From the sequence record SRR31156797_1554: a DNA stretch of 33,359 nucleotides, one strand, 5' to 3'. Below the pieces are notes generated by a model, which worked only from the letters and a program-made list of their open reading frames with translations, was not told the DNA's origin and ran no database searches. Numbering within the stretch: the stretch's first letter is position 1; the number at the start of each line of letters is the position of its first letter. Position numbers and translations under genes: made by a program. Shown one piece after another: positions 2,861 to 22,283 of the stretch.

Positions 2861-4045
2861 TTAAAGTTTAATAATATTAGTATTCTCGCCTGTAAGTGAG
2901 ACGCCGCCGTTGTCTGAAACAACGTAAGTGTTTTCGATACCCACAAGACCTGTGCCTGGCACCCCACGTTTAGGCTCAACAGCCATAACCATACCCTCCT
3001 CAAGCGGAAGGTCAAAACCTTTTGCGAATACCGGATACTCATCGATAACCAAACCGACACCATGACCTAAGAATTTCACCCGTTCCTCACGGATACCCAT
3101 GAAATACTCCTGAAAGTCCTCATCATACGCAGACATAACATCATCATAAACCTTAGAAGGTATTGCACCGGGACGCATAAGGTTAACCGTGGCATTAAGT
3201 ATCTCAACACACGCTTCCTGATATTTGTAAGCCTCGTCAGGCAGTTCACCAAAAGCGTAAACCTGAGTTTTGTCAGTGTGATACCCTTCCATTCCGCAGC
3301 CCACATCGACAAAAACAAGCTCATCCATTTTAAGCTTACGGTCGTCATTACCTAAAAGGGGAACAGCAGGGTTCATCCCTTTGACACCGCCCGGCCCGTC
3401 GAAAGTGTTGAAATACATTGAGTTTTCACCGAAACATATCTGCCCCTGAAAAAGCTCAGTATTAAACATGCCGATTCTGGTGACACCGTGGTGACCTCTG
3501 TCCATCATATACTTGAAAATTTCTGTCCCAAGCTCCTTTTCGCTCATCCCCTCTTTCAGGATTGTCGGTACAAAGTTCTCAAGGGTTTCACGATGAAGCC
3601 TTCCGCATGAGCGCATAATATCAAGCTCATACTTAGTCTTAACAGATCTGGTGGCTGCTATTGCATGGTCACACGAGATGGTCTCTTCGAAATTGAGATA
3701 TTTATTGATACGTTCGAAATGTGCGAGAGGGACAAATTCCTTCTCCATATATACAGCCCTGCCGAGATAACCTACGACAGGAGCTATGTCTCTGAAACTC
3801 TTTATTTTTACTATCTTATCAAAATTAGATTCGAGCTCTGCTCTCTGGTAGCTTCGGCGGACAAAGAAGATGGCATCGCTATCTTTAGGCACAATGAGCA
3901 CACCGTTCTGCTGGGTTCCTGTGAAGTAGTAAATATTCACTTTATTTACTATCAGAGCAACATTCCAGCCCGGGTTAAGCTGATCCATTTTCTTTCTGAA
4001 AGCAGACATTCTGCTTCCGAGTTCGCCTTTAGGTACAAGGTTCAA
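2861..4045 (-). CDS. M24 family Xaa-Pro peptidase
   Basis: Creatinase-like N-domain plus pita-bread metal-ligand motifs FVDVG, YHTD, GHGVG, VEPK, GIEN. TTG start overlaps the upstream TGA, with a GGAGG SD. Confidence 0.85.
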
Positions 4046-5028
4046 AGCAGCTCCTCCAGAGATATCTTCTTAGTTGCAAGTAGGTTACGCATCTTGCTAA
4101 GCACACGCTTCTCTATCTGGCGCACACGCTCACGGGTTATGCCGAGGTCGTTACCGATAGACTCAAGAGTCTCCGGATCATTACCCGAAAGCCCGTAGCG
4201 TCTTATTATAATAGTCTTTTCGTTATCAGACAGGAAGGTGAGCCATTTGAAAATGATCTCCTTCTTGCTGGTGTTTTCTATCTTAAGATAAGGGTCGAGG
4301 TATTTTTCATCATCTGCGATAAATTCGTGCAACGTACTGCTCTCATCTCCGCCCACAGGCATGTCGAGTGAAGTGTCCTGCTTTATCGCATCAAAAACCT
4401 TTTTAAGTGTCGAAAGAGGCATCTTAGTAGCTGTTGAAAGCTCGTGGATTGTCGGTTCCCGCCCGAGCTTCTGATTAAGTTCGTTCTGAGTTTTCATAAC
4501 TTTGCTGATGTTCTCAGACATATGAACAGGTATCCGCACCATACGGCACTGGTTGATGATAGCACGCTCAATAGCCTGACGTATCCACCATGTCGCATAT
4601 GTGCTGAACTTAAAGCCCTTAGTATAATCGAATTTCTCAACAGCTTTCAGAAGCCCGATATTCCCCTCTTCAACAAGGTCAACAAGGTTCATCCCACGGT
4701 TGATATATTTTTTAGCAATCGAAACAACAAGCCGTAAATTGCACTTGATCATTGTTTCTTTAGAGTCGTTACAGCCCTTCTCTATCCCTTGGGAAAGTGT
4801 CGCCTCTTCCTCACGAGTGAGAACAGGATATTTGGATATCTCGTTAAGATATATCTTAAACACTTCAAGGTCTTCCGAAGAATACTCATACTTCGGCTCT
4901 TTCTCTATTTCGCAAGGTTCAATCTTCGGCTCAGGTTCGTTTTTCAAATCCTCAATCTGAGGCTCTTCTTCAGTCAGTTCAGTCGGCTCTTCTACTTCTG
5001 TTTCTTCAACTGTTTCTGGATCACTCAT
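4042..5028 (-). CDS. rpoS: Group 1/2 sigma70-family factor, RpoS-like
   Basis: Regions 1.2 (YLNEI), 2 ([27 protein letters not shown]), 3 and 4 ([15 protein letters not shown]). Short acidic N-terminus, no RpoD region 1.1, pcm upstream. The family is certain; the rpoS name rests on synteny. Confidence 0.7.
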
Positions 5029-5483
5029 ATTCTCTCCAGCACTTCTTTAAGTTTAATAAAAAACAATTCCCTGTCATCATAGCTTGTTTCATGTTCGATA
5101 GGAGACTTAAAGCTTATAACTTCTCTGCCTAATTTCTTCGCTATAGCTATCTCAGAAGCAGTCCCGAGGCTTCCTCCCACAGAGACACACACATCTCCGC
5201 TTGAGGCAACGAGAACATTTCTCCCATGTCCGAGTCCGGTAGGGATAACAGCATCACAATATTCGTTTGCAGTGGATTTATCATAGGACGGAATCATCCC
5301 GATAGTTAGCCCTCCTGCATCCTTAGCACCATGTAATGCGTGCTCCATCACTCCGGCAAGACCTCCTGTCAGAACCATAAAACCTTTAGACGCTGCCAAC
5401 TGACCCACTAGATAGGCTACCTCAGAGATAACACTTTCACATTCTGCGGCTCCGGCTACGGCTATAATTTTCACAGGTACCAA
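5025..5483 (-). CDS. TIGR00725-like / LOG-family Rossmann-fold protein
   Basis: [26 protein letters not shown] motifs. Start uncertain (TTG 5483 or GTG 5474). Confidence 0.8.
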
Positions 5484-8964: not shown

Positions 8965-9606
8965 ATGATAGTTGCACCATCAGTTTTAAGCGCAGATTTT
9001 TCCATACTGGCAGAAGAGATAAAAGCTATCGACGAAGGCGGGGCAGACTGGATTCACCTTGATATTATGGACGGCATGTTTGTGCCGAATATCACCTTCG
9101 GCGCACCCGTGATTAAGACGCTTCGTAAGACTACTGAAAAAACTTTCGATGCGCACCTTATGATATGTGACCCTGACAGATACATTCAGGGGTTTGCTGA
9201 TGCTGGCTGTGATTTTATCACTGTCCACGAAGAGGCGTGCACACACCTACACCGCACAATATCACTCATAAAAGAGTGCGGATGCAAGGCTGGCGTTTCT
9301 CTCAACCCTGCTACATCACTTGAAACAGTGCGCGAAATACTTCCATATGTTGACATGGTGCTAATCATGTCTGTAAACCCTGGGTTCGGCGGGCAGAAAT
9401 TTATCCCAACAAGTTATGACAAAATAAGACGCCTCCGCAAAATGGCTGACGAGCTCAATCCGGAGCTTATCATTCAGGTGGACGGTGGCGTAAACAATAA
9501 GAACATCAAAGACCTGAAAGATGCAGGCTGTAATTGTGTCGTAGCGGGGAGCTTCGTCTTCGGAAATGAGAATTACGGAGAAGCTATCAAATCTCTGAAA
9601 ATTTAA
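8965..9606 (+). CDS. rpe: Ribulose-phosphate 3-epimerase
   Basis: APSVLSADF, HLDIMDG, MSVNPGFGGQ, VDGG. Confidence 0.97.
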   Translation: MIVAPSVLSADFSILAEEIKAIDEGGADWIHLDIMDGMFVPNITFGAPVIKTLRKTTEKTFDAHLMICDPDRYIQGFADAGCDFITVHEEACTHLHRTISLIKECGCKAGVSLNPATSLETVREILPYVDMVLIMSVNPGFGGQKFIPTSYDKIRRLRKMADELNPELIIQVDGGVNNKNIKDLKDAGCNCVVAGSFVFGNENYGEAIKSLKI

Positions 9607-9615
9607 TGTAGATTC

Positions 9616-9644
9616 CTTACAACGCCCGCAGCGTGTGGTATATT
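9616..9644 (+). promoter_or_regulatory. Possible internal sigma70 promoter for the receiver gene
   Basis: CTTACA-N17-TATATT with extended -10 TGn. Confidence 0.4.
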
Positions 9645-9668: not shown

Positions 9669-10028
9669 ATGGCTGTAAACATTTTAGTAGTAGATGACGA
9701 GCCGGATATCAGGCTCCTTTATCGTTCAGAACTGGAAGATCAGGGCTTTAAAATACACGAAGCCTCTAACTCAGAGGAGTGCTATAAGCAGCTTGCGGAT
9801 AAGAAGATTGACCTTGTCCTCCTCGACATTAAGCTCAAGGGCGAAAGCGGGATAGACATTCTTCAGAGCATTTCCGGTAAAGATAAGAAAGCGAAAGTTG
9901 TACTGGCGACAGCTTACAGTGCTTATCAGGACGACTTCCAGACTTGGCTGGCAGACGGCTACTGGGTGAAAACTCAGGAGATTGAAACACTGACAGAAGA
10001 AATTAACAAAGTTCTCGCAAAAAATTAA
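9669..10028 (+). CDS. Single-domain response regulator (receiver)
   Basis: VVDDE, LLDIKL (phosphoacceptor Asp), ATAY, VK. GGAGG SD before ATG 9669. Confidence 0.9.
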   Translation: MAVNILVVDDEPDIRLLYRSELEDQGFKIHEASNSEECYKQLADKKIDLVLLDIKLKGESGIDILQSISGKDKKAKVVLATAYSAYQDDFQTWLADGYWVKTQEIETLTEEINKVLAKN

Positions 10029-10103
10029 TACGGGGGCTTAGCTGTCCGTGCTAAATTTATATTATGCCTCAGTTTAACCTGCGGTGTGATTTTATAAGTA
10101 ATC

Positions 10104-10145
10104 AAAAATGCATCTGACCGGGAAACCTGTGCAGATGTATTTTTT
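10104..10145 (+). terminator. Long hairpin with GAAA tetraloop and T-tract (terminator/attenuator-like)
   Basis: AAAAATGCATCTG...GG-GAAA-CC...CAGATGTATTTTT. Confidence 0.55.
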
Positions 10146-10199
10146 GTCTAAAGAGATAATTAGCCGGGCAATAAATTTATTAATACGGAGTTAAGCTAT

Positions 10200-12692
10200 A
10201 TGAAAGCAGTTGTAATGGCAGGGGGATTCGGAACTAGGATTCAGCCGCTCACTTCAAGCATGCCGAAACCTATGATTCCAGTTATGAATAAACCTATGAT
10301 GGAGTACATTATCGACTCTCTGAAAGATGCAGGGATTGTCGAAATTGTTATCCTCCTTTACTTTAAGCCGGAAATAATCAAAAGCTATTTCGGTGACGGA
10401 AGCGAAAAAGGGATCAAAATACATTACGTGCTCCCTGATGACGACTATGGTACAGCGGGCGCAGTCAAGAAAGCGCAGCAGTACCTTGACGAGCGTTTTA
10501 TCATCGTATCCGGTGACCTTATATCCGACTTCTCATTTCAGGAGATCCTCGGCTTTCACGATGTTAAAGACTCAAAAGCAACACTCACTCTCACATCTGT
10601 GCCAGACCCTCTTCAGTTTGGTGTGGTTATCACAGATAAAGAGCAGAAGATCGTGCGCTTCCTCGAAAAACCGGGCTGGGGCGAAGTTTTCAGTGACACA
10701 ATCAACACAGGAATTTACGTCTTTGAGCCGGAGATACTCGATTATATCCCGGAAGACAGCAACTTCGACTTCTCAAAAGACCTCTTCCCGAAGCTTATGG
10801 CGAGCGGCATAGACCTCTTCGGTTATAACGCTAAAGGCTACTGGAGAGACGTTGGTAACCCTGATTCATACAGGGCGGCACTCCTCGACATACTTAACGA
10901 AGATGTAACACTCCCTCTCCTCGGCGAAAAAGTCGAATCTGAAGGTGTGACAATATATAAAGGCAATAACGTAAAGATCGACGAATCAGCAAAACTCGAA
11001 GGGCTTGTTGTCCTCGGAGACGGCTGCATCGTTGAGAAAGAAGCAACTATAAAGAACTCTGTCCTTTCCGATAACTGCAAAGTGGGCGAAAAATCCAACC
11101 TCGAAAACTCTATCCTATGGAAAGAGGTAATGGTTGGCAAAAACTCAGATATAACAAGTGCTGTTCTCTGCGACAGGGTAAATATAGGCTCCTCAGTGAA
11201 AGCTGAGCACGGTGTAATCATCGCAGACGATACTGAAGTTGGTCAGCAGGTTATATTTGAGAAAGACATTATGGTATGGCCTGAGAAGCAGATCGAAGAG
11301 GGTTCCATAGTAAGCTCAAACCTGATATGGGGCGACAAGTGGAAAAAATCTATCTTCGAGGGCGGGAAAGTATCAGCGAGAACAAACGTTGAACTCTCCC
11401 CTGATCTTGCTGCCAAGCTTGGTGCGGCACTCGGTTCACAGCTTCCGGCTGGTTGCAGAGTGCTGATGTCGAGAGACTACGACAAGGCATCCCGAATGCT
11501 TAAGCGTACTTTCCTCGGAGGGCTTCTCTCAACAGGTGTTAACGTAACCGAGCTTCATATGACACCGCTCCCTGTTATGAGGCATAAGTTAAGCATGTTC
11601 GGCGAAGTGGCAGGAGTTTACCTCCGCCAGTGCCAGAACGACCCTACTAACACTGAGATTCTCTTTTACGATGAGTCTGGTATGCCTATCGACTCAGGAC
11701 TTGAGAAGAATGTTGAGCGTATCTTCTTCCGTGAGAATTTCCGCAGAGCGACCCACGATGATATAGGCGAAATCTACGACCAGAATATGGCCGGTGAAAT
11801 GTATAAAGAGAGTGTAGTCAAAAATATCGACATACCTCTCATCAAAGCACGCAGACAGAAGATCGTTGTCGACCTTCTTAACGGTACAACTAACGGTGTC
11901 TACCCTGACCTGCTTAACAAAATAGGCGTAGAGGCAGTTGTCCTCAACGCATACAGAGACGAGAGCAAACTCTCCAGAACTATGCATCAGATAGAGCAGT
12001 CTTTTAATGAAGTTTGCGAAATCGTAAAGGTGACAGAATCTAAGCTAGGTTTTGTTGTCTATCCGCACGGAGAGAGGCTAGGCATAATAACTGAGGCTGG
12101 CGAAACACTTAAGGAAGACATGGTGCTCATGTTCATCCTTAAACTCATCGATATCTCCGTTAAATCAAAGGTAAAAGTTTACCTCCCTGCATTCGCTCCG
12201 ACAGTGCTCGACGATCAGCTTATGAATGTTGAGATCGTTCGTGGCAAAACTGCCGGCATTAAAGCTGATTACCTGCGTAATTTCTATTTCACTGGTGATC
12301 TCTCTCGCAACTACTCCTTTATGGAGAACAGCTCAAACGCTGACGCTATGTACTCGTCAATCAAGATTCTTGAAATGCTCGCAAGGCAGAACGTAGAACT
12401 AAGCGATGTACTCAAAACCATACCTTCATACCAGTACAGCCACACCGTGATCAACTGTCCGCTGGAGATGAAAGGTTTCCTTATGAGAAAGATGAGCGAA
12501 GACGCAATGGATAAAGAGGCGTCATTCCTCGATGGTATAAAGATCATATTCCCGAACAAAGGCTGGGTACACATGGTTCCGGACCAGTATACAGCGAATA
12601 TTCACCTCTATGTGGAGGCGGTCAACGCCAAAGACTACAAAAAGATCCACACAGAGTATAAGGATAAGATCAACAACTGGCTGCAGGAGTAG
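10200..12692 (+). CDS. Sugar-1-phosphate nucleotidyltransferase (mannose-1-P guanylyltransferase-like) + left-handed beta-helix + degenerate phosphohexomutase fusion
   Basis: AGGFGTR...PKP, SGD, FLEKP, YWRDVG; hexapeptide repeats; C-terminal PGM/PMM-like region. Confidence 0.85.
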   Translation: MKAVVMAGGFGTRIQPLTSSMPKPMIPVMNKPMMEYIIDSLKDAGIVEIVILLYFKPEIIKSYFGDGSEKGIKIHYVLPDDDYGTAGAVKKAQQYLDERFIIVSGDLISDFSFQEILGFHDVKDSKATLTLTSVPDPLQFGVVITDKEQKIVRFLEKPGWGEVFSDTINTGIYVFEPEILDYIPEDSNFDFSKDLFPKLMASGIDLFGYNAKGYWRDVGNPDSYRAALLDILNEDVTLPLLGEKVESEGVTIYKGNNVKIDESAKLEGLVVLGDGCIVEKEATIKNSVLSDNCKVGEKSNLENSILWKEVMVGKNSDITSAVLCDRVNIGSSVKAEHGVIIADDTEVGQQVIFEKDIMVWPEKQIEEGSIVSSNLIWGDKWKKSIFEGGKVSARTNVELSPDLAAKLGAALGSQLPAGCRVLMSRDYDKASRMLKRTFLGGLLSTGVNVTELHMTPLPVMRHKLSMFGEVAGVYLRQCQNDPTNTEILFYDESGMPIDSGLEKNVERIFFRENFRRATHDDIGEIYDQNMAGEMYKESVVKNIDIPLIKARRQKIVVDLLNGTTNGVYPDLLNKIGVEAVVLNAYRDESKLSRTMHQIEQSFNEVCEIVKVTESKLGFVVYPHGERLGIITEAGETLKEDMVLMFILKLIDISVKSKVKVYLPAFAPTVLDDQLMNVEIVRGKTAGIKADYLRNFYFTGDLSRNYSFMENSSNADAMYSSIKILEMLARQNVELSDVLKTIPSYQYSHTVINCPLEMKGFLMRKMSEDAMDKEASFLDGIKIIFPNKGWVHMVPDQYTANIHLYVEAVNAKDYKKIHTEYKDKINNWLQE

Positions 12693-12697
12693 CAACT

Positions 12698-14782
12698 ATG
12701 AAAAAGCTGAGGCTCTGCTTTCTATGGCATATGCACCAGCCATACTACAAAGACGATCTTGACGGCTCATATCACATGCCGTGGGTATATCTCCACGGGC
12801 TGAAGGATTATTATGAGCTGCCTTATTATCATAATATATACAGCAGACTCAAGGGTACATATAACCTTGTCCCATCTCTGCTTGTCCAGCTTAAAGACTA
12901 TGAGAAGACCAGCGTTGACGATGTCTACATTAAGCTCATGCTAAAAGACTCCGCTACACTGACAAGAGAGGAGAAGGATATCCTTATCCCTCAGCTTTTC
13001 ATGGCTAACTATAAAAATATGGTCAAACCCCTTCGGAGATACAAAGAACTGTATGACCGTAAAGGGGACATAGATGTTTTCCAGACATCAAATTTAAACT
13101 ATTCAGCAGAAGAGCTTACCGACATGCAGGTGCTCTACCTGATTAGCTGGTGCGGTGTTTTCACACGTAACAGAGTCGATATAGTTAACCGCCTTATCGC
13201 TAAAGGACGTCACTTCAGCCACGATGAAAAGGTAAACCTTATCAATGCGCTGGCGGATTTCACTGCGGAGATAGTTCCTCTTTATAAAGATTTACAGGAC
13301 AAAGGGAAGATAGAGGTCACTGCGACCCCGTTCTATCACCCTATCCTGCCGCTCCTTTTAGACCCGAGAAGTGCAAAAGAGGCACTCCCTCAGATAAGCA
13401 TGGCGAGTATCAACACTGATTTCTCTGCTGATGCTGATTATCACGTGCAGTCCGCAATAGACTACTATGAAGAGGAATTTGGCAGGAAACCGACAGGTAT
13501 GTGGCCTGCTGAAGGGAGCATATCAGAGAAGGCTGCGGCACTTTTTGCATCCAAAGGTGTCAGGTGGATAGCGAGCGACGAAGATGTTCTCGCAAGTTCC
13601 ATCGGGCTTGACCTCCGCAGTCAAGAGAACCGCAAAATCTTATATCAGAAGCACACTTTCAGCTCCACAGAGGGCGATATTAATATATTCTTCCGTGACA
13701 AAGAGGTCTCTGACCTGCTCGGGTTCACCTATTCCGGCTGGGACGCTGAAAAGGCTGTAGACGACTTCATGGAAAAGATGTCTGACATCTACGACTCTTG
13801 CGAGTTTTCCCCGATAGTACCTGTGATACTTGACGGCGAGAATGCGTGGGAATTCTATCCTGAAAATGCGAGCCAGTTCTTCACACTGCTTTATAACAGG
13901 CTTGAATCCTGCAACTGGATTGAAACACTGACTATGAACGAAGCTTGCGACAGCGACACGCCGGAGCACAAACCAGCTAAAATACGTGCGGGTTCATGGA
14001 TTTACGCTAACTTCACCACATGGATGGGGCACGAGGAGAAGAACGAAGGCTGGCGGCTTCTGGCTGATGCGCATAAACGTTTTCAGAAGAAGAGAGACGA
14101 GCTTGACAAGGTTGAACAGATACAGAAAGAGTTATATATTGCAGAGGGTTCCGACTGGTTCTGGTGGTACGGTGATGATCACTTTTCACTTCAGTCTGAC
14201 ACTTTTGACAAGCTCTTCCGTGGGCATCTTGCAAACATCTATGAGCTGATGGGCGAGAAAGTCCCTACGGACGTAACAAAGCCTATCAAAAAGACTCATA
14301 AAACCGGACTTCTGAAAAAGCCAGCGACAATGTTTACCCCTGTAATAGACGGTCAGGTTTCGAGCTTTTACGAGTGGATAGGTGCTGGCAGGTTCGACCT
14401 GAAATTTGACGCTGGTGCTATGACTGCATCCGGCAACACACTTGAGATTCTCTATTTCGGTTTTGACAGAGACAACCTGTACCTCCGTATAGACGGCAGC
14501 TTCGGAACTGTTTTAAACATGGACTATGTTCTTGAGGTTGAAGTCACCACTGACTCCACCCAGACATTCGGCTTTCATTTTGATACAGATGGCGAGCTAG
14601 CCCACTGTACCGGTTCGATTTTTGAAGCAAAAATAGCTCTCAGCGAGCTAGGCGAAAATGTTGAAAATGCGGATATCATATTCCGCTTAAAGAAGGGGCG
14701 CACCGTTGTTGAGGTCGCTCCGCTATATAACACTGTCCAGATAGACTTTTCGAGAGATTTTGAAAAGGATTGGATAGTCTAG
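12698..14782 (+). CDS. GH57 amylopullulanase-like glycoside hydrolase
   Basis: LWHMHQP, GMWPAEG (nucleophile), LDGENAWE (acid/base), AEGSDWFWW. Confidence 0.9.
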   Translation: MKKLRLCFLWHMHQPYYKDDLDGSYHMPWVYLHGLKDYYELPYYHNIYSRLKGTYNLVPSLLVQLKDYEKTSVDDVYIKLMLKDSATLTREEKDILIPQLFMANYKNMVKPLRRYKELYDRKGDIDVFQTSNLNYSAEELTDMQVLYLISWCGVFTRNRVDIVNRLIAKGRHFSHDEKVNLINALADFTAEIVPLYKDLQDKGKIEVTATPFYHPILPLLLDPRSAKEALPQISMASINTDFSADADYHVQSAIDYYEEEFGRKPTGMWPAEGSISEKAAALFASKGVRWIASDEDVLASSIGLDLRSQENRKILYQKHTFSSTEGDINIFFRDKEVSDLLGFTYSGWDAEKAVDDFMEKMSDIYDSCEFSPIVPVILDGENAWEFYPENASQFFTLLYNRLESCNWIETLTMNEACDSDTPEHKPAKIRAGSWIYANFTTWMGHEEKNEGWRLLADAHKRFQKKRDELDKVEQIQKELYIAEGSDWFWWYGDDHFSLQSDTFDKLFRGHLANIYELMGEKVPTDVTKPIKKTHKTGLLKKPATMFTPVIDGQVSSFYEWIGAGRFDLKFDAGAMTASGNTLEILYFGFDRDNLYLRIDGSFGTVLNMDYVLEVEVTTDSTQTFGFHFDTDGELAHCTGSIFEAKIALSELGENVENADIIFRLKKGRTVVEVAPLYNTVQIDFSRDFEKDWIV

Positions 14783-14829
14783 CTTCTGTCATTGCGAGGG
14801 GGCAAAGACGACGCGGCAATCTTAGAAGC
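14782..14829. repeat. Half copy of a GTCATT-type REP/CIR-like palindromic repeat
   Basis: GTCATTGCGAG...GACGCGGCAATCT (ATTGC/GCAAT stem) enclosed by GCTTCT/AGAAGC. Confidence 0.6.
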
Positions 14830-14855
14830 AACCAAAACATTAAGGAACAAAATTA

Positions 14856-16895
14856 ATGAGCAAATTACCAGTACATTTAGGAATACATTGCCACCAGCCG
14901 GTGGGTAACTTCTATCATGTGATCGACCACGCAGTCGAGAAAAGTTACCTCCCTTACTTCGAAGTGGCACTATCTAAACCTGATTTTAAATTCAGCATCC
15001 ACTACAGCGGTTGGCTGATGGAATACATCAGAGATAACCACTCTAAACTGTTCAGCATGATGAAGCAGGCGGCGAAATCCGGCCAAGGCGAGTTCTTCTC
15101 CGGCGGATACTACGAGCCTGTGCTCGCATCCATCCCGTCAATAGACAGACGGGAACAGATCAAAAAACTGAACGGCTTCATCGAGGATAACTTCAAGGTC
15201 AGCCCGAAAGGTTTATGGCTGACAGAGCGGGTTTGGGACAGTTCAATAATCCCAGACTGCGCTGAATGCGGGATAGAGTATGTTATCGTTGACGACTATC
15301 ACTTCGTTGCGGCGGGCTTTTACGAATCTATGCTTCACTCGCACTTTAAAACAGAGCAGGACGGATGCGAGATGCTCATCTTCCCTATCTCAGAAAAGCT
15401 GAGATACCTCACACCTTTCAAACAGGCTGATGAGGTAGCTGATTACCTTAAAGAAGTGGCTGACAATGGAGGCAAATCTATCACTATTTTTGACGATGGT
15501 GAAAAGTTTGGGCTCTGGCCGGAGACTTATGAGTGGGTTTATGAAAAGGGTTGGTTATCTGATTTCATAGACGCAGTTGTTGAATCTGATCATTCAGAAT
15601 TTGCACTTTTTAAAGACACTGTAAAAGAGCAGAAACCAGCGCAGATAGCTTACCTGCCAACTGTTTCATACTTTGAAATGGGTGAATGGTCACTCTTTTC
15701 TGAGCGTACGGAAAAGATGGAAAAGCTTGTTGAAGAGATGGAAGAGAAATACGACGATGACACTACAAAGGTTTTTGTTAAAGGCGGAATCTGGAAGAAT
15801 TTCCTTGTGAAATATCCTGAATCTAACCGCATACATAAAAGGACAACGTCACTCAGTAAGAAGGCGAACGCATCTGGCGATGCAGAGCTTTTAGATGCGC
15901 TATATAAAGCTCAGTGCAACGATGTGCTATGGCACGGGATTTTTGGCGGTCTATATCTGCCAAACCTGCGTAACAACGCATACAGATTCATCATCGAGGC
16001 TGAAAAGAGGCTTGAGCTGGTGACAGGCATTAAGACCCCTTCTGTTGAGGTTGGAGATTTCGACTTTGATGGTTATGACGAAGCTTACCTCAGGGGTGAG
16101 ACGTCTAACTTCATGTTTACATCAAGAGATTGCGGTCAGGTCGTTGCCATCGAGGATAAGGATAACCTTTTCAACTTTCAGAACACTCTGACAAGAAGGA
16201 AAGAGGCATACCACGAAAAACTCTTTGAAGTGGAAGAGACAGAGCCTGCGGAGCCATCAGACGGTGAAATTATCGGAACAATCCACGACTCACAAACGAA
16301 AGTAGATGAAGAATATAAGAAATATCTCTGCTTCGACTGGCACAATAAAAACAGCTTCATAGATCACTTTGTACCGCAATTCGACAAAGAGGCTTTTGAA
16401 AATGTAACCTTCTCTGAGGTTGGTGATTTTGCTAATCAACCTGCGGAGATGAAAACAGGTAAAAGCAGCGTAACATTCGATCGTGACGGCGGTATCTACC
16501 TAGACGGTAATAAACATGAGACCTCTATCAGAAAAAGCTTCAAAGCTTTGAAAAACGGACTCGGCTTTGAGATAAAGATCAGCACTGATACAGATATATG
16601 CTATGTAATGGAGCTCAATCTCCACTTTAACAACATGGCTGAAACAACTATAAATAACGTTCTCGCTGAAGAGTACGACGGCTCACAATCAAAAACTTTT
16701 GTAATAAAAGATAAACACACACCAAAAGGTGTTAAAATTGAATTTGATGTGCCGACAGAGCTACATGCATACATAGTAAAAACTCTCTCCCAATCTGAGA
16801 GCGGTGCAGACCTGACTGACCAGGGGATATGCATCCTTGTACCTGTCAGGCTAAACGGTGATAAAATTATAAAAGGCAAACTGGGGCTGGTGTAA
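14856..16895 (+). CDS. GH57 4-alpha-glucanotransferase/alpha-amylase (DUF1925/DUF1926)
   Basis: HCHQP, GLWLTERVW, FDDGEKFG, AQCNDVLWHG.FGGLYLP, NTLTRR.EAYH. Confidence 0.9.
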   Translation: MSKLPVHLGIHCHQPVGNFYHVIDHAVEKSYLPYFEVALSKPDFKFSIHYSGWLMEYIRDNHSKLFSMMKQAAKSGQGEFFSGGYYEPVLASIPSIDRREQIKKLNGFIEDNFKVSPKGLWLTERVWDSSIIPDCAECGIEYVIVDDYHFVAAGFYESMLHSHFKTEQDGCEMLIFPISEKLRYLTPFKQADEVADYLKEVADNGGKSITIFDDGEKFGLWPETYEWVYEKGWLSDFIDAVVESDHSEFALFKDTVKEQKPAQIAYLPTVSYFEMGEWSLFSERTEKMEKLVEEMEEKYDDDTTKVFVKGGIWKNFLVKYPESNRIHKRTTSLSKKANASGDAELLDALYKAQCNDVLWHGIFGGLYLPNLRNNAYRFIIEAEKRLELVTGIKTPSVEVGDFDFDGYDEAYLRGETSNFMFTSRDCGQVVAIEDKDNLFNFQNTLTRRKEAYHEKLFEVEETEPAEPSDGEIIGTIHDSQTKVDEEYKKYLCFDWHNKNSFIDHFVPQFDKEAFENVTFSEVGDFANQPAEMKTGKSSVTFDRDGGIYLDGNKHETSIRKSFKALKNGLGFEIKISTDTDICYVMELNLHFNNMAETTINNVLAEEYDGSQSKTFVIKDKHTPKGVKIEFDVPTELHAYIVKTLSQSESGADLTDQGICILVPVRLNGDKIIKGKLGLV

Positions 16896-17915
16896 ATGTC
16901 AGAACTTAGATACGACCCTGTAAAACAACTCTGGTCGGTTATAGCCGACGAGAGGAGCAGAAAACCTGACGACTATCTGGTGAAAAGGCTGGAATTCAGA
17001 GCGGACGAAGTATCGGTCTGCCCATTTTGCAAAGGGAACGAAAAAACCGCCGGAAATGAAATTTTTTCCATCAAAAAAGACGGTAAATGGCAGACAAGAG
17101 TTGTACCTAACAGCTATCCGGCTTTCCGCATAGAAGGTGAACTTAAACGTACAGCACAAGGCATTTACGACACTGTTAACGCAGTTGGTGCGCACGAGGT
17201 TGTGATAGAGACACCTGATCACAGCACTAATCCGGGCAACTATACAGAAGAGACTCTGTTTAATCTTTTCAGTACATTTAAAGAGCGTGTGAACGACCTT
17301 AAAAAAGATACCCGTTTCCGCTATATTATGCCCTTTAAAAACTATGGGCTTCTCGCCGGAGCTACGATGGAGCATGCTCATTCGCAGATCATCGCTCTCC
17401 CTGTCACACCAAATGTTATCAGGACAAAGCTTGCGGCATGCCTTTACCACTATCGTAAAAAGGAACGCTGCCTCTTTTGTGATATACTAGATCAGGAGCG
17501 GAGTGAAAATGTACGCATTATATATGAAAATCAGGACTTTGTAGCGCTCTGCCCTTATGCATCTACTCAGCCTTTTGAGATATGCATATACCCAAAACGG
17601 CACAATCATTGCTTTGCTAATATAGATGAGGGTGAGCTGTCAGGACTGGCGGATATCACCAGAGAGATTTTCAGCAGACTTTACAAATGTTTAGAGAATC
17701 CTCCATTTAACATGGTGATTCAAACTTCACCACCGGTGGTTAAAAGACCATCACAGCCCGGTTACTGGACGAGCATCAAAGAGGATTTTCACTGGCACAT
17801 AGAGATTACGCCTAGGCTGACCGGAATAGCTGGATTCGAATCCGGAACCGGCTTTTACATTAACCCTGTTGCACCGGAAAGTGCGGCCGAGTTCCTGAGA
17901 GGTGCCGGCAAATGA
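16896..17915 (+). CDS. GalT-like HIT-superfamily nucleotidyltransferase
   Basis: SELRYDP, CPFC zinc site, HEVVIETP, HAHSQ (HxHxQ), HWHIEI.PR...AGFE. Confidence 0.88.
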   Translation: MSELRYDPVKQLWSVIADERSRKPDDYLVKRLEFRADEVSVCPFCKGNEKTAGNEIFSIKKDGKWQTRVVPNSYPAFRIEGELKRTAQGIYDTVNAVGAHEVVIETPDHSTNPGNYTEETLFNLFSTFKERVNDLKKDTRFRYIMPFKNYGLLAGATMEHAHSQIIALPVTPNVIRTKLAACLYHYRKKERCLFCDILDQERSENVRIIYENQDFVALCPYASTQPFEICIYPKRHNHCFANIDEGELSGLADITREIFSRLYKCLENPPFNMVIQTSPPVVKRPSQPGYWTSIKEDFHWHIEITPRLTGIAGFESGTGFYINPVAPESAAEFLRGAGK

Positions 17916-19339
17916 AAACTGTAATGGTCACCAGCGAGGTAACACCCTACTCCAGAACAGGGATCTTAGGCGATGCTGTAGCGGGTCTTTCAAAAGGGCT
18001 AGCTCATAAAGGAGTAGATGTTTGTGTGATATCACCCCTTTACCTCTGCATAGGTGTTAGCGAGAACGACCGCCAGCAGAAAGATACTCTCACAGTTTCT
18101 GCAGCTGGTATCGACTATAGTTTTGCAGTTTATTCTGAAAACAAAGACGGCATAAACTACGTCTTCCTTTATAACGAAGAGATGTTCGGCAGAAGATATA
18201 TATACGGAGCGGGAGATTTCGACTTTTCTGACAATGACATAAGATTCGGGATTTTCTCTCTCGCCTCACTGGAATACATGAAAAATATGGCAGTCCAGCC
18301 GGACATAATACACTGCCATGAATGGTGCACCGGGCTTGTCCCTGTTTACCGTAACCTCTTTTACGATGAGATCGGAGCGAAGATAATATTTACTGCTCAT
18401 AACATCTCATTTCAGGGGATTTTTGAAAAGTACAGCATTCAGGCACTCGGGCTTCCCTGGAGTATCTACAACATCGAAGAGCTTGAATACTACGAAGGGA
18501 TAAGCTTCCTTAAGGGCGGTATGGTACACGCTGACTATGTCACAGTGCCAAGCCCTACATACGCTGAGGAGATTAAAACCGAGGAGTTCTCCCAAGGATT
18601 CGGGCTTCTGATGGCTGACCTTTCACATAAGCTCGAAGGGATCATGGGAGGCATAGACTATGACAGGTTTAACCCTCTTGACGACAGCTACATAAAAGAG
18701 ATGTACTGCCACGAAAACATTGATGCAAAAGCGGGAAATAAGAAAGTTTTCCTTGCGGAATCTAAGCTGAAGGATGATAATCTCCCACTCTTTCTCGTAG
18801 AGACAAAATTCAACGAGCGCAAAGGGCTGGAGCTCATTATAGAATCAGCGGAAGAGCTATCAAAACTAGATGCTAACTTCGCTTTCATAGGATACGGTGA
18901 GTCGTACCTATGTTCTAAGTTTAAAGAGATAGGCAGTAAATATGAGAACATGTACACCTTTATAGGGTCTTGCGAAAACATGATACATAAGGCTTACTCA
19001 GCGGCTGATTTTGTCCTTCGCCCGTCACTATCTGAACCGGGAGGGAACAGCCACCTTAAAGGTATGCGCTACGGAGCTCTCCCTGTTGTGAGCAAAACCG
19101 GCGGACACATAGACACAGTAGTAGATCTCGAAGAGGGCGGATACGGCTTCTTTATTAATGAATACAGCAGACAGGAACTGCAAAATCAGATCCTGCGTGC
19201 ATTGGCTTTTTTCGGTAACAAACCTATATTAGCTAAGTGCATTAAGAAAGTGATGCAGATTGACTTTTCCTGGAGTACAGCATCTCTTAAGTATATTGAA
19301 CTTTACAGGAGGTTGCTCGGAGGCAGCTATGAACCTTAA
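17912..19339 (+). CDS. glgA: Glycogen/starch synthase (GT5), divergent
   Basis: GT5 layout: PDIIHCH, TAHN..FQG, LKGG, SPTYAEEI, PS..EP, YGALPVV..TGG..DTV, DFSW...A.KY. Confidence 0.82.
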   Translation: MKTVMVTSEVTPYSRTGILGDAVAGLSKGLAHKGVDVCVISPLYLCIGVSENDRQQKDTLTVSAAGIDYSFAVYSENKDGINYVFLYNEEMFGRRYIYGAGDFDFSDNDIRFGIFSLASLEYMKNMAVQPDIIHCHEWCTGLVPVYRNLFYDEIGAKIIFTAHNISFQGIFEKYSIQALGLPWSIYNIEELEYYEGISFLKGGMVHADYVTVPSPTYAEEIKTEEFSQGFGLLMADLSHKLEGIMGGIDYDRFNPLDDSYIKEMYCHENIDAKAGNKKVFLAESKLKDDNLPLFLVETKFNERKGLELIIESAEELSKLDANFAFIGYGESYLCSKFKEIGSKYENMYTFIGSCENMIHKAYSAADFVLRPSLSEPGGNSHLKGMRYGALPVVSKTGGHIDTVVDLEEGGYGFFINEYSRQELQNQILRALAFFGNKPILAKCIKKVMQIDFSWSTASLKYIELYRRLLGGSYEP

Positions 19340-20087
19340 AAAAATGACCAAAGTCGAACTTTACGAACTTGCGAAGAAGTTTAATGTAAAAAACAGAAGC
19401 AAGATGACTAAGCCTCAGCTTGTGGCGGCACTTACTGACTATGTCAAAGTTGTCGCTCCTGAGAAGACACCGCAGGCGGACAGTGAAATTGTGACCAGCC
19501 ATATGCCTGAAGAACCGGCAAAACCTGAACCTGCGAAAAAACCTGAATTCCCTATTCCAGACAGATACAACCTCGACACTGTTGTTCTGCTCCCTGTTAA
19601 CCCTAAAAAGGAGTATGTCTATTGGGAAGTTTCTGACAAGACTGTGGAAGATTACTGCGCAAGATTTAACATCAACCAGCCTATCTTCATCCTCAAGGTC
19701 TTTCAGAACGATGGGGATAATACTGAAGAACTTGCCAGTGTGCGTGTTTCGAAATACGGCAACTGGTACTTCGACCTATACTGCCCTGAGATGAACCTCT
19801 GGGCTGAGCTCGGCATACTCGACAGCAGAGGAAACTATTACCCTATAACCTCTTCTAAAAAGATCAAAATGCCAAGCGACAAGGTGAGCAAAGAGATAGA
19901 TAACGAAACATGGATGACCGTTGGAGAGAAGATCGAGCAGATTTTCGAGCTTTCCGGTGTTTCTGATGTTCAGAAGGAAGAGCTGCTCTCCAGTGCGAGA
20001 CTGCACACTGAGCTTTTCAAAAAACTCCACGAGCAGGAGGGAGGATTATCCTCTTCTTCCATGCTTAAAGCTGAAGGGGATAAATAA
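19329..20087 (+). CDS. DUF4912 protein with Rho-N-like N-terminal helical domain
   Basis: MTKVELYELAKK....RSKMTKPQL; P..Y....VVLLPVNP...YVYWEV; WY; Ser-rich tail. GGAGG SD before ATG 19329. Confidence 0.8.
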   Translation: MNLKKMTKVELYELAKKFNVKNRSKMTKPQLVAALTDYVKVVAPEKTPQADSEIVTSHMPEEPAKPEPAKKPEFPIPDRYNLDTVVLLPVNPKKEYVYWEVSDKTVEDYCARFNINQPIFILKVFQNDGDNTEELASVRVSKYGNWYFDLYCPEMNLWAELGILDSRGNYYPITSSKKIKMPSDKVSKEIDNETWMTVGEKIEQIFELSGVSDVQKEELLSSARLHTELFKKLHEQEGGLSSSSMLKAEGDK

Positions 20088-21664
20088 TGTCAAACGGTTA
20101 TTGGATGCTGGTGCTCCATTCGCACCTCCCATTTGTTAAGCATCCTGAATATGAATATTTCCTAGAGGAACACTGGTTTTACGAAGCCATTTCCGAAACA
20201 TATATACCTATGCTCCAGTACATGAAAAAGATGCAGGACGAAGGGATTAACTTTCGCTTCGCTACATCTGTAACCCCTCCTCTCGCTGAGATGATGAGTG
20301 ATGGTCTACTCATGGAGCGCTACGAAAAACATATAGAGAAGATGCTCGAGCTTGCTGACAAAGAGATCGAAAGAACCAAAGGCACATGCTTTGAGCATCT
20401 AGCACACATGTATAAAGATAAATTTATCGGTCTGAAAGAGTTCTATTACGGTTTCCTTAACAGGAGCCTGATCAACGGCTATAAGCACTTTCAGAATGCC
20501 GGATACATAGATATAATGACCTGCGGTTTTACTCACGGCTTCCTCCCTCTGCTCAGCAATACTGAAAACGCTGTCAGGGCACAGGTTGAAATGGCTGTAA
20601 AGAGCCACGAACAGAAGTTCGGACAAAAACCCAGAGGTATATGGCTGCCTGAGTGCGCATATTTCGAAGGGCTTGACGATGTACTCGCTGAATACGGCAT
20701 AAGATACTTCTTTGTCGATACCCACGGTGTGCTCTATGCAAAACCTAGACCTAGATATGGCGTTTACGCACCTGTATTTACCAAGAGCGGTGTTGCGGCT
20801 TTCGGACGTGATTATTACTCTTCTAAACAGGTATGGAGCTCTAAAGAGGGCTATCCGGGCGACATCAACTATAGAGATTTCTATCGTGATATAGGCTACG
20901 ACCTGAACCACGATTATATAAAACCTTATATCAGTCCGGATGGAGAGCGGGTTTTCACCGGATTCAAATATCATAGAATCACTGGTGATAGCGAGTATAA
21001 AGAGTTTTATGACCACAGAGTCGCATCAGAGAAGACTGTCGGTCATGCTAAACATTTTGTTGTTGAGCGTGAGAAGCAGCTCGCTGAGATTGCGGAGCTT
21101 ATCGACAGGAAACCTGTTGTGGTTTCACCTTATGATGCAGAGCTTTACGGGCACTGGTGGTATGAGGGACCTGAGTTCCTATATAACGTTTTCAAAGAGA
21201 TGGATAAATCTCAGTCAATAAAATCTGTAACCCCGACGGAATACCTTAATGAATACCAGACTAATCAGGTGGTGGCTGTTAACCCTTCATCATGGGGTGA
21301 CAAGGGGTATTACGACGTATGGCTGAATACTGGGAATGACTGGATCTACCGTCACCTCCACTTTATGTCTGACAAGATTGTGGATATGGCTAAGTTCCAT
21401 CACGACACGACTAACGACTTTAAACGAAGATGCCTGAACCAGATGGCACGTGAGCTCTTCCTCGCTCAATCGAGCGACTGGGCTTTCCTCGTGACCACCG
21501 GAACGGCAATAGATTACGCTGTTCAACGTACCAAAGAGCACATCCATAATTTTATGCGATTGCGTGACCTTGTGGACGGCGATAATGAGGATTTCCACTA
21601 TCTAAAGATGATCGAAGGTAAAAACAGTATCTTCCCTGATATGGATTTCAGAATTTACTGCTAA
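20087..21664 (+). CDS. GH57 1,4-alpha-glucan branching enzyme (DUF1957)
   Basis: HSHLP, GIWLPECAY, PYDAELYGHWWYEG, AQSSDWAF. Confidence 0.92.
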   Translation: MSNGYWMLVLHSHLPFVKHPEYEYFLEEHWFYEAISETYIPMLQYMKKMQDEGINFRFATSVTPPLAEMMSDGLLMERYEKHIEKMLELADKEIERTKGTCFEHLAHMYKDKFIGLKEFYYGFLNRSLINGYKHFQNAGYIDIMTCGFTHGFLPLLSNTENAVRAQVEMAVKSHEQKFGQKPRGIWLPECAYFEGLDDVLAEYGIRYFFVDTHGVLYAKPRPRYGVYAPVFTKSGVAAFGRDYYSSKQVWSSKEGYPGDINYRDFYRDIGYDLNHDYIKPYISPDGERVFTGFKYHRITGDSEYKEFYDHRVASEKTVGHAKHFVVEREKQLAEIAELIDRKPVVVSPYDAELYGHWWYEGPEFLYNVFKEMDKSQSIKSVTPTEYLNEYQTNQVVAVNPSSWGDKGYYDVWLNTGNDWIYRHLHFMSDKIVDMAKFHHDTTNDFKRRCLNQMARELFLAQSSDWAFLVTTGTAIDYAVQRTKEHIHNFMRLRDLVDGDNEDFHYLKMIEGKNSIFPDMDFRIYC

Positions 21665-21667
21665 ATG

Positions 21668-21710
21668 TTGCATAAGTAAAATCAAAATGATATATTGATA
21701 AAAATTATTA
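21668..21710 (+). promoter_or_regulatory. Ferritin sigma70 promoter with overlapping Fur/PerR-like box
   Basis: TTGCAT-N17-TATATT (extended TGn). TGATAAAAATTATTA at 21696-21710 has 2 mismatches to the 7-1-7 TGATAATnATTATCA. Confidence 0.6.
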
Positions 21711-21724
21711 TTTGGGAGAATCTG

Positions 21725-22231
21725 ATGATGACGGAAAAAATGACAAAAGCACTTAATGCACAGCTTAATTTTGAATATTACTCAGCTTATGTTTACCTCG
21801 CTATGTCTGCGCACGCCGACAACGTAGGTCTTAAAGGTATATCTAATTGGTTCGATGCTCAGTATCAGGAAGAGATGATGCACGCCACTAAATTTCTCCA
21901 CTACATAATGGAGAGAGCTGAGGTGGAGCTTGAGGCTATAGAAAAACCAAGGAAAGAGTATAAAGACGTCCTTGAGATGTTTGAGGTAACACTTGAGCAT
22001 GAGCAGGAAGTTACAGCCAGAATAAATGACCTAGCGACACTCGCCGCAGAAGAGAAAGACCACGCCACAAGCAACTTTCTTCAGTGGTTTATAAACGAGC
22101 AGGTCGAAGAGGAAGCGACTGTTAACGAAATCCTTGACGATATCAAGCTAGCCGGCGCAACAGGACCTGGACTCTTTATGATCAACAGAGAGCTCGGCTC
22201 AAGAACTTTTACTGCTGATCCACAAGCGTAA
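21725..22231 (+). CDS. ftnA: Non-heme ferritin
   Basis: Ferroxidase ligands NFEYYS, EEMMH, HEQEV, QWFINEQVEEE. GGAG SD before ATG 21725. Confidence 0.93.
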   Translation: MMTEKMTKALNAQLNFEYYSAYVYLAMSAHADNVGLKGISNWFDAQYQEEMMHATKFLHYIMERAEVELEAIEKPRKEYKDVLEMFEVTLEHEQEVTARINDLATLAAEEKDHATSNFLQWFINEQVEEEATVNEILDDIKLAGATGPGLFMINRELGSRTFTADPQA

Positions 22232-22257: not shown

Positions 22258-22283
22258 AAGCCCCTCAGTTGAGGGGCTTTTTT
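22258..22283 (+). terminator. Intrinsic terminator after ferritin (possibly bidirectional)
   Basis: AAGCCCCTCA-GT-TGAGGGGCTT followed by TTTT. Confidence 0.9.

Follow-up and report, generated by a model that had tools for sequence, protein, structure and literature searches.

How might a bacterium build and mobilise a storage glucan when the genes around its glycogen synthase are not those of the usual pathway? The question is raised by seven adjacent genes, g1 to g7, in the sequence record SRR31156797_1554, a 33,359-nucleotide stretch of DNA that was analysed over its whole length and is referred to here as the window. Bacterial glycogen metabolism is taught as a GlgC-GlgA-GlgB/GlgX/GlgP pathway or as a GlgE pathway. 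In the window, a GlgA is encoded together with three enzymes of family GH57, a sugar nucleotidyltransferase fused to a dead mutase, a GalT-like protein and a DUF4912 protein (Table 1). We consider it rather probable that these genes form a conserved cytoplasmic α-glucan (glycogen-type) storage cluster of a Deferribacterales bacterium, working in the steps proposed below. The assignment of the window to the Deferribacterales is suggested by the lists of closest homologues, in which the best match is 92% identical, with Denitrovibrio at about 80%, Seleniivibrio at 69% and Geovibrio at 63%.

The seven genes are co-oriented and closely packed, with successive junctions from g1/g2 to g6/g7 of +5, +73, 0, -4, -11 and -1 nucleotides (nt). 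The -11 nt junction (g5/g6) is counted from a revised start of g6, an ATG at 19329 that stands behind a GGAGG sequence and opens the conserved N-terminus MNLKKMTK; the open reading frame (ORF) as listed begins with a TTG at 19260, inside glgA. The domain content of g1 to g7, determined with Pfam and NCBIfam, matches the original prediction, which had described seven abutting or overlapping genes forming an α-glucan cluster based on GH57 enzymes and GlgA; the layout is confirmed by the ORF positions, and the assignment of the cluster is supported. The GC content across the region is even (0.42-0.47), no convincing plus-strand terminator was detected within the cluster by the consensus scan, and the numbers of promoter and terminator consensus sites in that scan were not above those of shuffled sequences (25 versus 22.2 and 12 versus 11.2). 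The region from about 10200 to 21664 is probably a single transcription unit. Family scans of 32 ORFs of the window (a batch of 10 and a second of 22, three of the latter without any family match) revealed no GlgC, GH13, GH77 or GT35 protein and no nucleotidyltransferase other than g1. The predicted lack of GlgC, GlgB and GlgP consequently holds for these ORFs, and it applies to the 33-kb window only.

Table 1 Genes of the α-glucan cluster and features found upstream of it (window coordinates).
Feature	Position	Strand	Assigned from
g1, sugar-1-phosphate nucleotidyltransferase (residues 1-~370, with LbH) fused to a dead phosphohexomutase-like domain (~385-830)	10200..12692	+	Pfam, NCBIfam
g2, cytoplasmic GH57 amylopullulanase-type protein, catalytic domain (1-~517) and ~180-aa C-terminal extension	12698..14782	+	Pfam, structure match
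g3, GH57 4-α-glucanotransferase (disproportionating enzyme)	14856..16895	+	full-length match to 1k1w
g4, GalT-like HIT-superfamily nucleotidyltransferase, ADP-glucose-phosphorylase type	16896..17915	+	Pfam GalP_UDP_transf/DUF4931/HIT
g5, GlgA, GT5 glycogen/starch synthase, ADP-glucose type	17912..19339	+	Glyco_transf_5, TIGR02095
g6, Rho_N (SAP-like) domain, linker, DUF4912 β-sandwich and C-terminal helices	19329..20087	+	Pfam
g7, GH57 glycogen-branching-enzyme homologue, loop-less class (T. maritima AmyC/GBE type)	20087..21664	+	2b5d match, GH57 and BE_C
Single-domain response regulator (REC only)	9669..10028	+	Pfam Response_reg, 74 bits
Intergenic leader, 171 nt, with a long hairpin and U-run (~10103-10146)	10029..10199	+	folding

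Compared with the classical operon GlgC/GlgA/GlgB/GlgX/GlgP (PMC11046441), the cluster has the same ADP-type GT5 GlgA and the same logic of activation, polymerisation, branching and debranching. It differs in that branching, debranching and disproportionation are assigned to GH57 enzymes, while the window is devoid of GlgC, GH13 and GT35, and in that a ManC/UGPase-like nucleotidyltransferase with a dead mutase is taken to activate the sugar; genes for an ADP-glucose-phosphorylase-like protein, a DUF4912 protein and a REC protein are present in addition. Each of the enzyme families is already known, and a role of GH57 branching enzymes in glycogen metabolism is established (PMC11046441, PMC9291813).

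The synthase itself, g5, scores 403.9 bits against the glgA model TIGR02095, above the cut-off of 328.45, and aligns over its full length with the glycogen synthase structures of E. coli (235 bits) and Agrobacterium (212 bits). The N-terminal nucleotide-sugar motif reads SRTGILGD (residues 14-21, window positions 17953-17976); E. coli GlgA has KTGGL at this motif, and the sequence found in g5 may bear on donor preference.

The conservation of the neighbourhood across phyla was surveyed by means of an alignment of 18 GalT-like proteins, with which genome contigs were scanned at one genome per species. A relative was encoded at 570 of the 600 pattern matches listed, and 80 loci were retained, each with a flank of up to 10 kb to the left and right; the window proteins were then searched against all ORFs of at least 80 amino acids (aa) in these loci. 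They span Desulfuromonadales/Geobacter, Acidobacteriota, Nitrospirota, Aquificota, Verrucomicrobiota, Myxococcota, WOR-3, Auribacterota and others, and no Deferribacterales locus is among the 80 kept from the matches listed. A glgA gene is present in 28 of the 80 loci, and in 22 of them no more than 300 nt separate it from an adjacent, co-oriented GalT-like gene; the arrangement is far beyond chance. The other cluster members recur less often: the GH57 amylopullulanase type in 16 loci, the 4-α-glucanotransferase type in nine, the nucleotidyltransferase-pseudomutase fusion in six and the GH57 branching-enzyme type in three, with at least one α-glucan gene in 40 of the 80. A genuine GlgC, a nucleotidyltransferase of about 415 aa, is found in seven loci, six of the proteins passing TIGR02091 and the seventh NF002023; an eighth candidate, in locus L041, is MurU-like and was left out of the count. 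Similar clusters had been expected in other anaerobes, and they do occur in mostly anaerobic lineages, namely Geobacter/Desulfuromonadales, Nitrospirota, Aquificota and Auribacterota.

Two loci match the gene set of the window with GlgC replacing the fusion protein: L022, in the order GlgC, amylopullulanase, 4-α-glucanotransferase, GalT-like, two other genes and GH57 branching enzyme, and L019, in the order GlgC, a 158-aa ORF, GH57 branching enzyme, amylopullulanase, 4-α-glucanotransferase, GalT-like and GlgA. The Geobacter-type order is kinase, REC, nucleotidyltransferase-pseudomutase, amylopullulanase and GalT-like. In L022 (Nitrospirae), the position of the window glgA is taken by a 506-aa protein (10927-12447) that matches class-II aldolases weakly (43.2 bits), and the window GlgA found no match in this locus when used as query. 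Clustering of the neighbouring ORFs (at least 80 aa, 60% alignment coverage) yielded 23 families present in at least four loci. Among the 21 of them that were scanned with Pfam (all except the GalT-like family and an antisense ORF overlapping it) there was no GH13, GT35 or GH77; the scan added a GAF-HisKA kinase (14 loci) and otherwise only lineage-specific housekeeping neighbours.

Sugar activation is assigned to g1. Its N-terminal part combines an NTP_transferase domain (PF00483, 182.4 bits) with a left-handed β-helix (LbH, 89 bits), and the G-rich loop GGFGTRIQPLT (residues 8-18; consensus GGxGTRxxPLT) is kept in all seven fusion proteins compared, g1 and six from other phyla; these are the hallmarks of a sugar-1-phosphate nucleotidyltransferase. 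The protein does not classify as GlgC, with 151.3 bits against TIGR02091 (cut-off 424.9). The best solved relatives of the N-terminal domain are the UTP-glucose-1-phosphate uridylyltransferase 8x7s (191.1 bits) and 7whr, GlgC structures reaching about 69 bits, and the top NCBIfam match is mannose-1-phosphate guanylyltransferase, at 261.3 bits and below its cut-off of 440.

The C-terminal domain of g1 is recognised by the Pfam PGM/PMM I and II families and aligns along the length of the P. horikoshii mutase 1wqa (124 bits), with a TIGR03990 score of 192.7 bits against a cut-off of 439. The four loops on which a phosphohexomutase depends are all lost: relative to 1wqa, the phosphoserine loop TASHNP is replaced by RQCQND, the metal loop DGDADR (DxDxDR) by YPHGER, the sugar loop GEENGG by GDLSRN and the phosphate loop RASGTEP by VPDQYTA. 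The reading of this domain as a pseudo-mutase, made from the sequence at the outset, is thereby confirmed, and the idea of an active bifunctional mutase/nucleotidyltransferase was rejected, as the loops are lost in all seven fusions. The nucleotidyltransferase motifs are conserved in the same seven proteins, which also have private mutase-domain motifs in common, RQ and LPDQ among them. Because the same loop loss and the same private motifs occur in homologues of other phyla, the domain appears from these comparisons to be an old, maintained pseudo-enzyme and not a recent wreck.

Across the sister clusters, one slot is held either by the fusion protein or by genuine GlgC, often with the same REC gene in front of it, and the two were not seen together in any of the 80 loci. 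Since genuine GlgC sits in the slot of the fusion, g1 probably supplies a nucleoside diphosphate (NDP)-glucose to the cluster.

The GalT-like protein g4 had been taken for an enzyme normally annotated in an unrelated pathway. This view is too narrow: the closest solved relative is Arabidopsis thaliana At5g18200 (1z84/2h39), with 216.6 bits over residues 3-335, followed by the archaeal GalT 6k5z (110.8 bits) and E. coli GalT (55-60 bits, best 60.3). At5g18200 is an ADP-glucose phosphorylase, crystallised with bound ADP-glucose (preprint 10.64898/2026.09.13.751320). The two proteins share the HxHxQ motif and the Cys-x-x-Cys zinc site, and C42, C45, H100, H160, H162 and Q164 are invariant in the 18 GalT-like sequences aligned; with its Cys/His zinc site and its greater proximity to At5g18200 than to the GalTs, g4 is of the ADP-glucose-phosphorylase type, with this activity being putative. 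Unlike the plant enzyme, it is bacterial and embedded in glycogen clusters. An ordinary Leloir GalT was rejected, as g4 falls below both curated cut-offs (TIGR00209, 87.6 versus 102.1 bits; NF008724, 112.4 versus 448 bits) and its neighbours are glgA and GH57 genes, not galK and galE.

What such an enzyme would do beside a glycogen synthase depends on its direction. McCoy and colleagues reportedly found in 2006 that the reaction of the plant enzyme (ADP-glucose + Pi = glucose-1-phosphate + ADP) is close to equilibrium and that the Km for ADP-glucose is in the low micromolar range. Cellular phosphate is usually far above glucose-1-phosphate. To our knowledge, the physiological role of the plant ADP-glucose phosphorylase is itself unclear. 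A reaction that is said to be near equilibrium, taken together with the excess of phosphate over glucose-1-phosphate, makes the phosphorolytic direction the likelier one. Moreover, since the GalT-like gene accompanies a genuine GlgC in seven of the 80 loci, its product is not a simple stand-in for GlgC. The proposal that sugar nucleotide is supplied jointly by a ManC-like and a GalT-like enzyme is accordingly retained for the fusion protein, which occupies the GlgC slot, and revised for the GalT-like protein, which looks like an addition and not a replacement.

We also weighed the reverse direction, in which the GalT-like enzyme would make ADP-glucose from ADP and glucose-1-phosphate without ATP and would feed GlgA alone or beside the nucleotidyltransferase. 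This would fit the affinity of g4 to ADP-glucose phosphorylase, whose reaction is said to be reversible, its position next to glgA on the same strand in 22 loci with a 4-nt overlap of g4 and g5 here, and the lack of GlgC within the window. The presence of GlgC in sister clusters, and of a nucleotidyltransferase in the window itself, leaves a second supplier unneeded, and phosphate far in excess of glucose-1-phosphate would keep ADP-glucose very low, by an estimate from the equilibrium reported for the plant enzyme; we hold this synthetic role to be rather unlikely.

The protein g7 had been described as a GH57 branching enzyme, and it is a homologue with the fingerprints of glycogen-branching enzymes (GBE) given in PMC9291813: HSHLP (residues 11-15), WLPE189C190AY and D350AELYGHW (ELYGHW 352-357), followed by a BE_C domain (111.8 bits). 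It belongs, however, to the loop-less class, reported to be nearly inactive alone. Its closest match is Thermotoga maritima AmyC/GBE (2b5d, 544.4 bits), gap-free across the loop region 208-230. When aligned with Pyrococcus horikoshii GBE, a 10-residue gap at ~217-224 shows that the flexible loop of 17-22 residues that covers the cleft in 'true' enzymes is missing, and gaps right after PECAY show the absence of the β5-β6 insertion. This loop-less, β5-β6-less class comprises 2296 of 2497 sequences (92%), and its tested members have a branching activity of about 10 mU/mg, nearly none in vitro; it has been suggested that they are perhaps not glycogen-branching enzymes and may act in pathways yet to be identified (PMC9291813). 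Their weak activity and physiological role have been described in the literature as puzzling. With T. maritima AmyC/GBE and the class at large, g7 has in common the gap-free loop region, HxHLP, the region III Cys, ELF/YGHW and BE_C; it differs in that its gene overlaps that of a DUF4912 protein by 1 nt, and in that the product of the latter is predicted to bind it. The enzymes of the published work were assayed alone (PMC9291813).

This partner, g6, matches DUF4912 (PF16258) with 82.1 bits against a gathering score of 29.4, and Rho_N with 31.1 bits. Its AlphaFold2 model (mean predicted local distance difference test score, pLDDT, 69.4) consists of a Rho_N helix pair, a disordered linker, a β-sandwich (residues 84-175, pLDDT 85-92) and C-terminal helices. 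The best matches of a fold search in the PDB are FN3 domains (E ~3e-4), generic sandwiches without a functional lead, and no solved DUF4912 homologue was found by sequence profile. A word-based search gave 55 relatives of g6, mostly from Deferribacterales, and no match to g6 was found among plasmids; the DUF4912 family as a whole is large, with 3439 representative clusters in a profile search at E <= 0.001. In a comparison of 45 diverse members (mean identity 21%), P77, Y80, W99, E100 and S176 are the only residues of the domain conserved at 90% or more.

The overlap of the g6 and g7 genes was the reason for predicting a complex of this pair. The score was 0.91 in each of three runs, and 0.00 for the best of three controls; in calibration, 51 of 78 solved complexes and 2 of 108 mismatched pairs attained the mark applied to it. 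The runs share at least 63% of contacts, with a partner pLDDT of at least 67. As no solved homologue of DUF4912 is found by profile, it is unlikely that the model reproduces a complex already known to it. The predicted interface on g7 includes residues 193-194, right after PECAY (188-192), 212-213, 215-221 and 223-227, that is, the sites after PECAY and at THGVLYAKPRPRYGVY, and it also takes in 399-426, a stretch with conserved tryptophans. Residues 212-227 align with SHAFW-FADEQPRY-GVYR of the T. maritima enzyme, and Table 2 of PMC9291813 places a β-strand deletion and loop swaps at these two parts of the interface, after PECAY and in the 212-227 stretch. On the side of g6, the interface includes P77, Y80 and S176. 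The models thus support, as a prediction, binding of g6 to g7 at the places where the loop-less class is without the loop and the strands. The DUF4912 gene had been listed as a cluster member, which it is; its predicted binding to the branching-enzyme homologue had been overlooked. That the genes of g4, g6 and g7 stay together in Deferribacterales has indirect support from their homologue lists, which have nine contigs apparently in common, the smallest of 15,926 bp (equal size being taken as identity).

Some further observations concern the two families. Of 16 long DUF4912 proteins, 6 have a weak Glucodextran_B match, which in two of them attains the gathering score; this ties the family faintly to glucan enzymes. 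Tandem arrays (P0357, P0377) carry ten DUF4912 repeats in a 1471-aa protein and five repeats behind a periplasmic-binding-protein-like domain, so the domain is also used outside the small Rho_N and DUF4912 format. A homologue of g7 with 62% identity (P0220) is present in a metagenome-assembled genome attributed to Flexistipes sinusarabici. The plasmid search for g7 gave only two distant actinobacterial GH57 matches, which are uninformative.

The remaining two GH57 proteins, like g7, keep their catalytic Glu and Asp, as predicted for all three. Among solved structures, g2 comes closest to AaApu, the GH57 amylopullulanase of Aquifex aeolicus (9jlq/8zyi, 361.9 bits), for which five conserved regions and a Glu nucleophile/Asp acid-base dyad have been named (PMC12106739). 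All five regions are present in g2, as HMHQP (11-15), GKIEV (203-207), WPAEGS (269-274), DGENAW (379-384) and AEGSDW (482-487), and the catalytic motifs WPAE272GS and D379GENAW are intact. It is thus of the amylopullulanase type by its sequence, with a putative dual α-1,4/1,6 activity. It differs from AaApu in length (694 versus 477 aa) by an extra C-terminal part of about 180 aa, to which Pfam assigns no family and whose Atlas leads, to Glucodextran_C clusters, are weak; there is no leader, the catalytic domain starting with residue 1.

The match of g3 to the Thermococcus litoralis 4-α-glucanotransferase (1k1w) extends over residues 5-660 with 461.5 bits and covers the whole three-domain layout: GH57 (PF03065, 166 bits), AmyA-A_glucT_m (PF09094, 90.7 bits) and AmyA-gluTrfs_C (PF09095, 205.6 bits). 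Both motifs of the T. litoralis type are found, WLTERVW (121-127, with E124) and DDGEKFG (213-219, with D213-D214). The archaeal enzyme is discussed in the context of maltodextrin use, whereas g3 lies inside a GlgA cluster.

Together, the assignments suggest the following working. The nucleotidyltransferase-pseudomutase fusion would replace GlgC and make NDP-glucose, as its position in sister clusters indicates, and its dead mutase domain would most likely sense sugar phosphates or serve in assembly. GlgA, of the ADP-glucose type by its family score, would extend α-1,4 chains, and g7 and the DUF4912 protein would act as a two-protein enzyme in which, according to the predicted interface, DUF4912 covers the missing flexible-loop and β5-β6 sites. 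From their family functions, the amylopullulanase would debranch the polymer and the 4-α-glucanotransferase disproportionate it when it is remodelled or mobilised. Finally, g4 would interconvert ADP-glucose + Pi and glucose-1-phosphate + ADP, mainly toward glucose-1-phosphate, as a phosphate-sensitive valve by which ADP-glucose is turned back into glucose-1-phosphate while the ADP is retained; with GlgA running in reverse, it could form a phosphorolytic exit from glycogen without GlgP. The two boldest parts of this scheme, taken jointly, namely that DUF4912 is the missing in-trans subunit of loop-less GH57 enzymes and that the GalT-like protein beside glgA is a bacterial ADP-glucose phosphorylase, phosphate-controlled, ATP-sparing and able with GlgA to replace glycogen phosphorylase, we put forward tentatively, as somewhat more likely to fail than to stand.

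A number of observations weigh against the storage cluster so conceived. The functions of its proteins come from family membership, and what goes beyond this we infer. The indications for the nucleotide used by g1 diverge, being ManC-like by NCBIfam and UTP-glucose by structure beside a GlgA of the ADP type, and a canonical glgC, glgB or glgP may be present elsewhere in the genome. Half of the surveyed loci (40 of 80, largely Acidobacteriota and Desulfobulbales-type) have no α-glucan gene in their flanks, so the GalT-like family is not always positionally tied to glycogen genes; some of these loci are short contigs, but in many the flanks reach the full 10 kb in either direction. As for the predicted complex, its score is the own confidence of the prediction model, and 7 of 44 blindly drawn neighbouring pairs passed the same mark in calibration. 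No fusion of DUF4912 with GH57 was seen in the 16 long DUF4912 proteins examined. The DUF4912 profile gave a single weak match among the 4350 ORFs of the 80 loci (E 0.028), beside the GH57 branching enzyme of L019; no DUF4912-like ORF lies between the genes of L072, and the neighbour of 239 aa in L022 bears no resemblance to the family. Beyond the Deferribacterales, a DUF4912-GH57 branching enzyme link is thus suggested, weakly, in one of three other loci. Lastly, co-transcription of the REC gene is doubtful in the window because a terminator-like hairpin separates it from g1.

If a canonical glgC, GH13 glgB/glgX or glgP is indeed encoded elsewhere, the cluster could be an accessory that remodels or fine-tunes a glucan made mainly by those enzymes. 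In many bacteria, branching enzymes of GH13 and of GH57 occur together (PMC9291813, PMC6629080), the loop-less GBE homologues are weak branchers alone (PMC9291813), and the analysis was confined to the window, all of which leaves room for such a division of labour. On the other hand, a GlgA and a nucleotidyltransferase are encoded in the cluster itself, and neither GH13 nor GT35 nor GH77 is among the 21 scanned families that recur in at least 4 of the 80 loci; we consider an accessory role unlikely, with an appreciable chance of being right. The same synthase and nucleotidyltransferase, both anabolic, speak against a purely catabolic cluster that would use imported maltodextrin or starch and build no store. 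Amylopullulanase and 4-α-glucanotransferase are classical starch-degrading activities in Thermococcales (PMC11046441), as such a role would require, yet g2 has no leader and the family scans of the window found no transporter or binding-protein gene in or beside the cluster, which makes this reading very improbable.

The product might also be a glucan-based molecule other than glycogen, comparable to the mycobacterial methylglucose lipopolysaccharide, to whose synthesis a GH57 branching-enzyme homologue is assigned. Loop-less homologues have been proposed to act in unidentified pathways, with mention of the mycobacterial case (PMC9291813), and g1 is most like mannose-1-phosphate guanylyltransferases by NCBIfam. 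No methyltransferase, acyltransferase or glucosyl-glycerate gene was found in the cluster by the family scans of the window, and GT5 GlgA, 4-α-glucanotransferase and amylopullulanase act on plain α-1,4/1,6 glucan; we give this alternative hardly any weight. A glycogen-type storage cluster is the reading we prefer.

On that reading, the cluster would represent a third glycogen gene set, recurring across many mostly uncultured or anaerobic phyla. The gene set was not found described in searches of the full-text literature; the branching-enzyme survey of Suzuki and Suzuki (2016, Cell Mol Life Sci 73:2643) may cover related clusters. Full-text searches likewise gave no description of a pseudomutase-fused nucleotidyltransferase in the place of GlgC, none of a bacterial ADP-glucose-phosphorylase-like gene tied to glgA, where most term matches were plant papers with a loose usage, and no function for DUF4912, of which two matches to the name were unrelated. 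Three questions are raised in this way: whether a dead-mutase-fused nucleotidyltransferase replaces the allosteric GlgC, whether a bacterial ADP-glucose phosphorylase is tied to glycogen, and whether DUF4912 is an activator of the large class of GH57 branching enzymes that are nearly inactive alone. The last takes up a problem already raised in published work on GH57 and is of interest for modifying starch with these thermostable enzymes; if the proposal is true, DUF4912 gives in trans what the loop and β5-β6 give in cis in the few 'true' enzymes. Starch and glycogen pathways were scored absent in Flexistipes sinusarabici DSM4947 by pathway modules (PMC10344455). Module-based annotation may overlook a cluster of this kind, and that study of Deferribacterota pathways may have missed the gene set.

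Upstream of g1 lies the REC gene, whose ORF as listed begins with a GTG at 9633 and whose likely start is an ATG at 9669. The seven-gene cluster originally described is real, and this gene, part of the conserved pattern, had been overlooked. REC-only homologues (60-114 bits) are present in 26 of the 80 loci, directly upstream of the nucleotidyltransferase-pseudomutase gene in L002, L003, L005, L008 and L011 and upstream of GlgC in L009 and L010; the REC gene probably belongs to the cluster as a regulator. Where glucan genes are lacking, a REC homologue can follow the GalT-like gene immediately, so REC is tied to the GalT-like gene as much as to glycogen genes. This pairing, at 74-97 bits and with no glucan gene near, is seen in L021, L023, L035, L037, L043, L056, L074, L076 and L079, nine loci of Desulfobulbales-type and other deltaproteobacterial origin in which REC lies about 10 kb into the locus. 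A histidine kinase with GAF, HisKA and HATPase domains stands near the GalT-like gene in 14 of the 80 loci; in L002, where its position was checked, it lies directly upstream of REC (3145-4770), and at the corresponding place the window holds a ribulose-phosphate 3-epimerase gene (8965-9606).

The leader between REC and g1 is more stable than expected for its composition: the fold of 10025-10205 has -54.4 kcal/mol and a z-score of -4.81, and none of 200 shuffles was as stable. An Rfam scan of the whole window gave no family at threshold. The hairpin may terminate transcription after REC or act before g1 as an attenuator or regulatory leader. In sister loci, the distance from REC to the next gene is only 1-50 nt.

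Downstream, a ferritin gene (21695-22231) on the same strand begins 30 nt past g7 and ends at the sole convincing terminator of the consensus scan, a strong, bidirectional one at 22258-22279. A weak promoter-like site is located at 21654-21682, and co-transcription of ferritin with the glycogen genes is possible. The flanks of the window at 354-2795 and 4042-5483 contain FlaG and a Maf-like flagellin glycosylation gene, as well as a SLOG/LDcluster4 gene that overlaps a sigma-70-family gene by 4 nt; all of these appear unrelated to the cluster.

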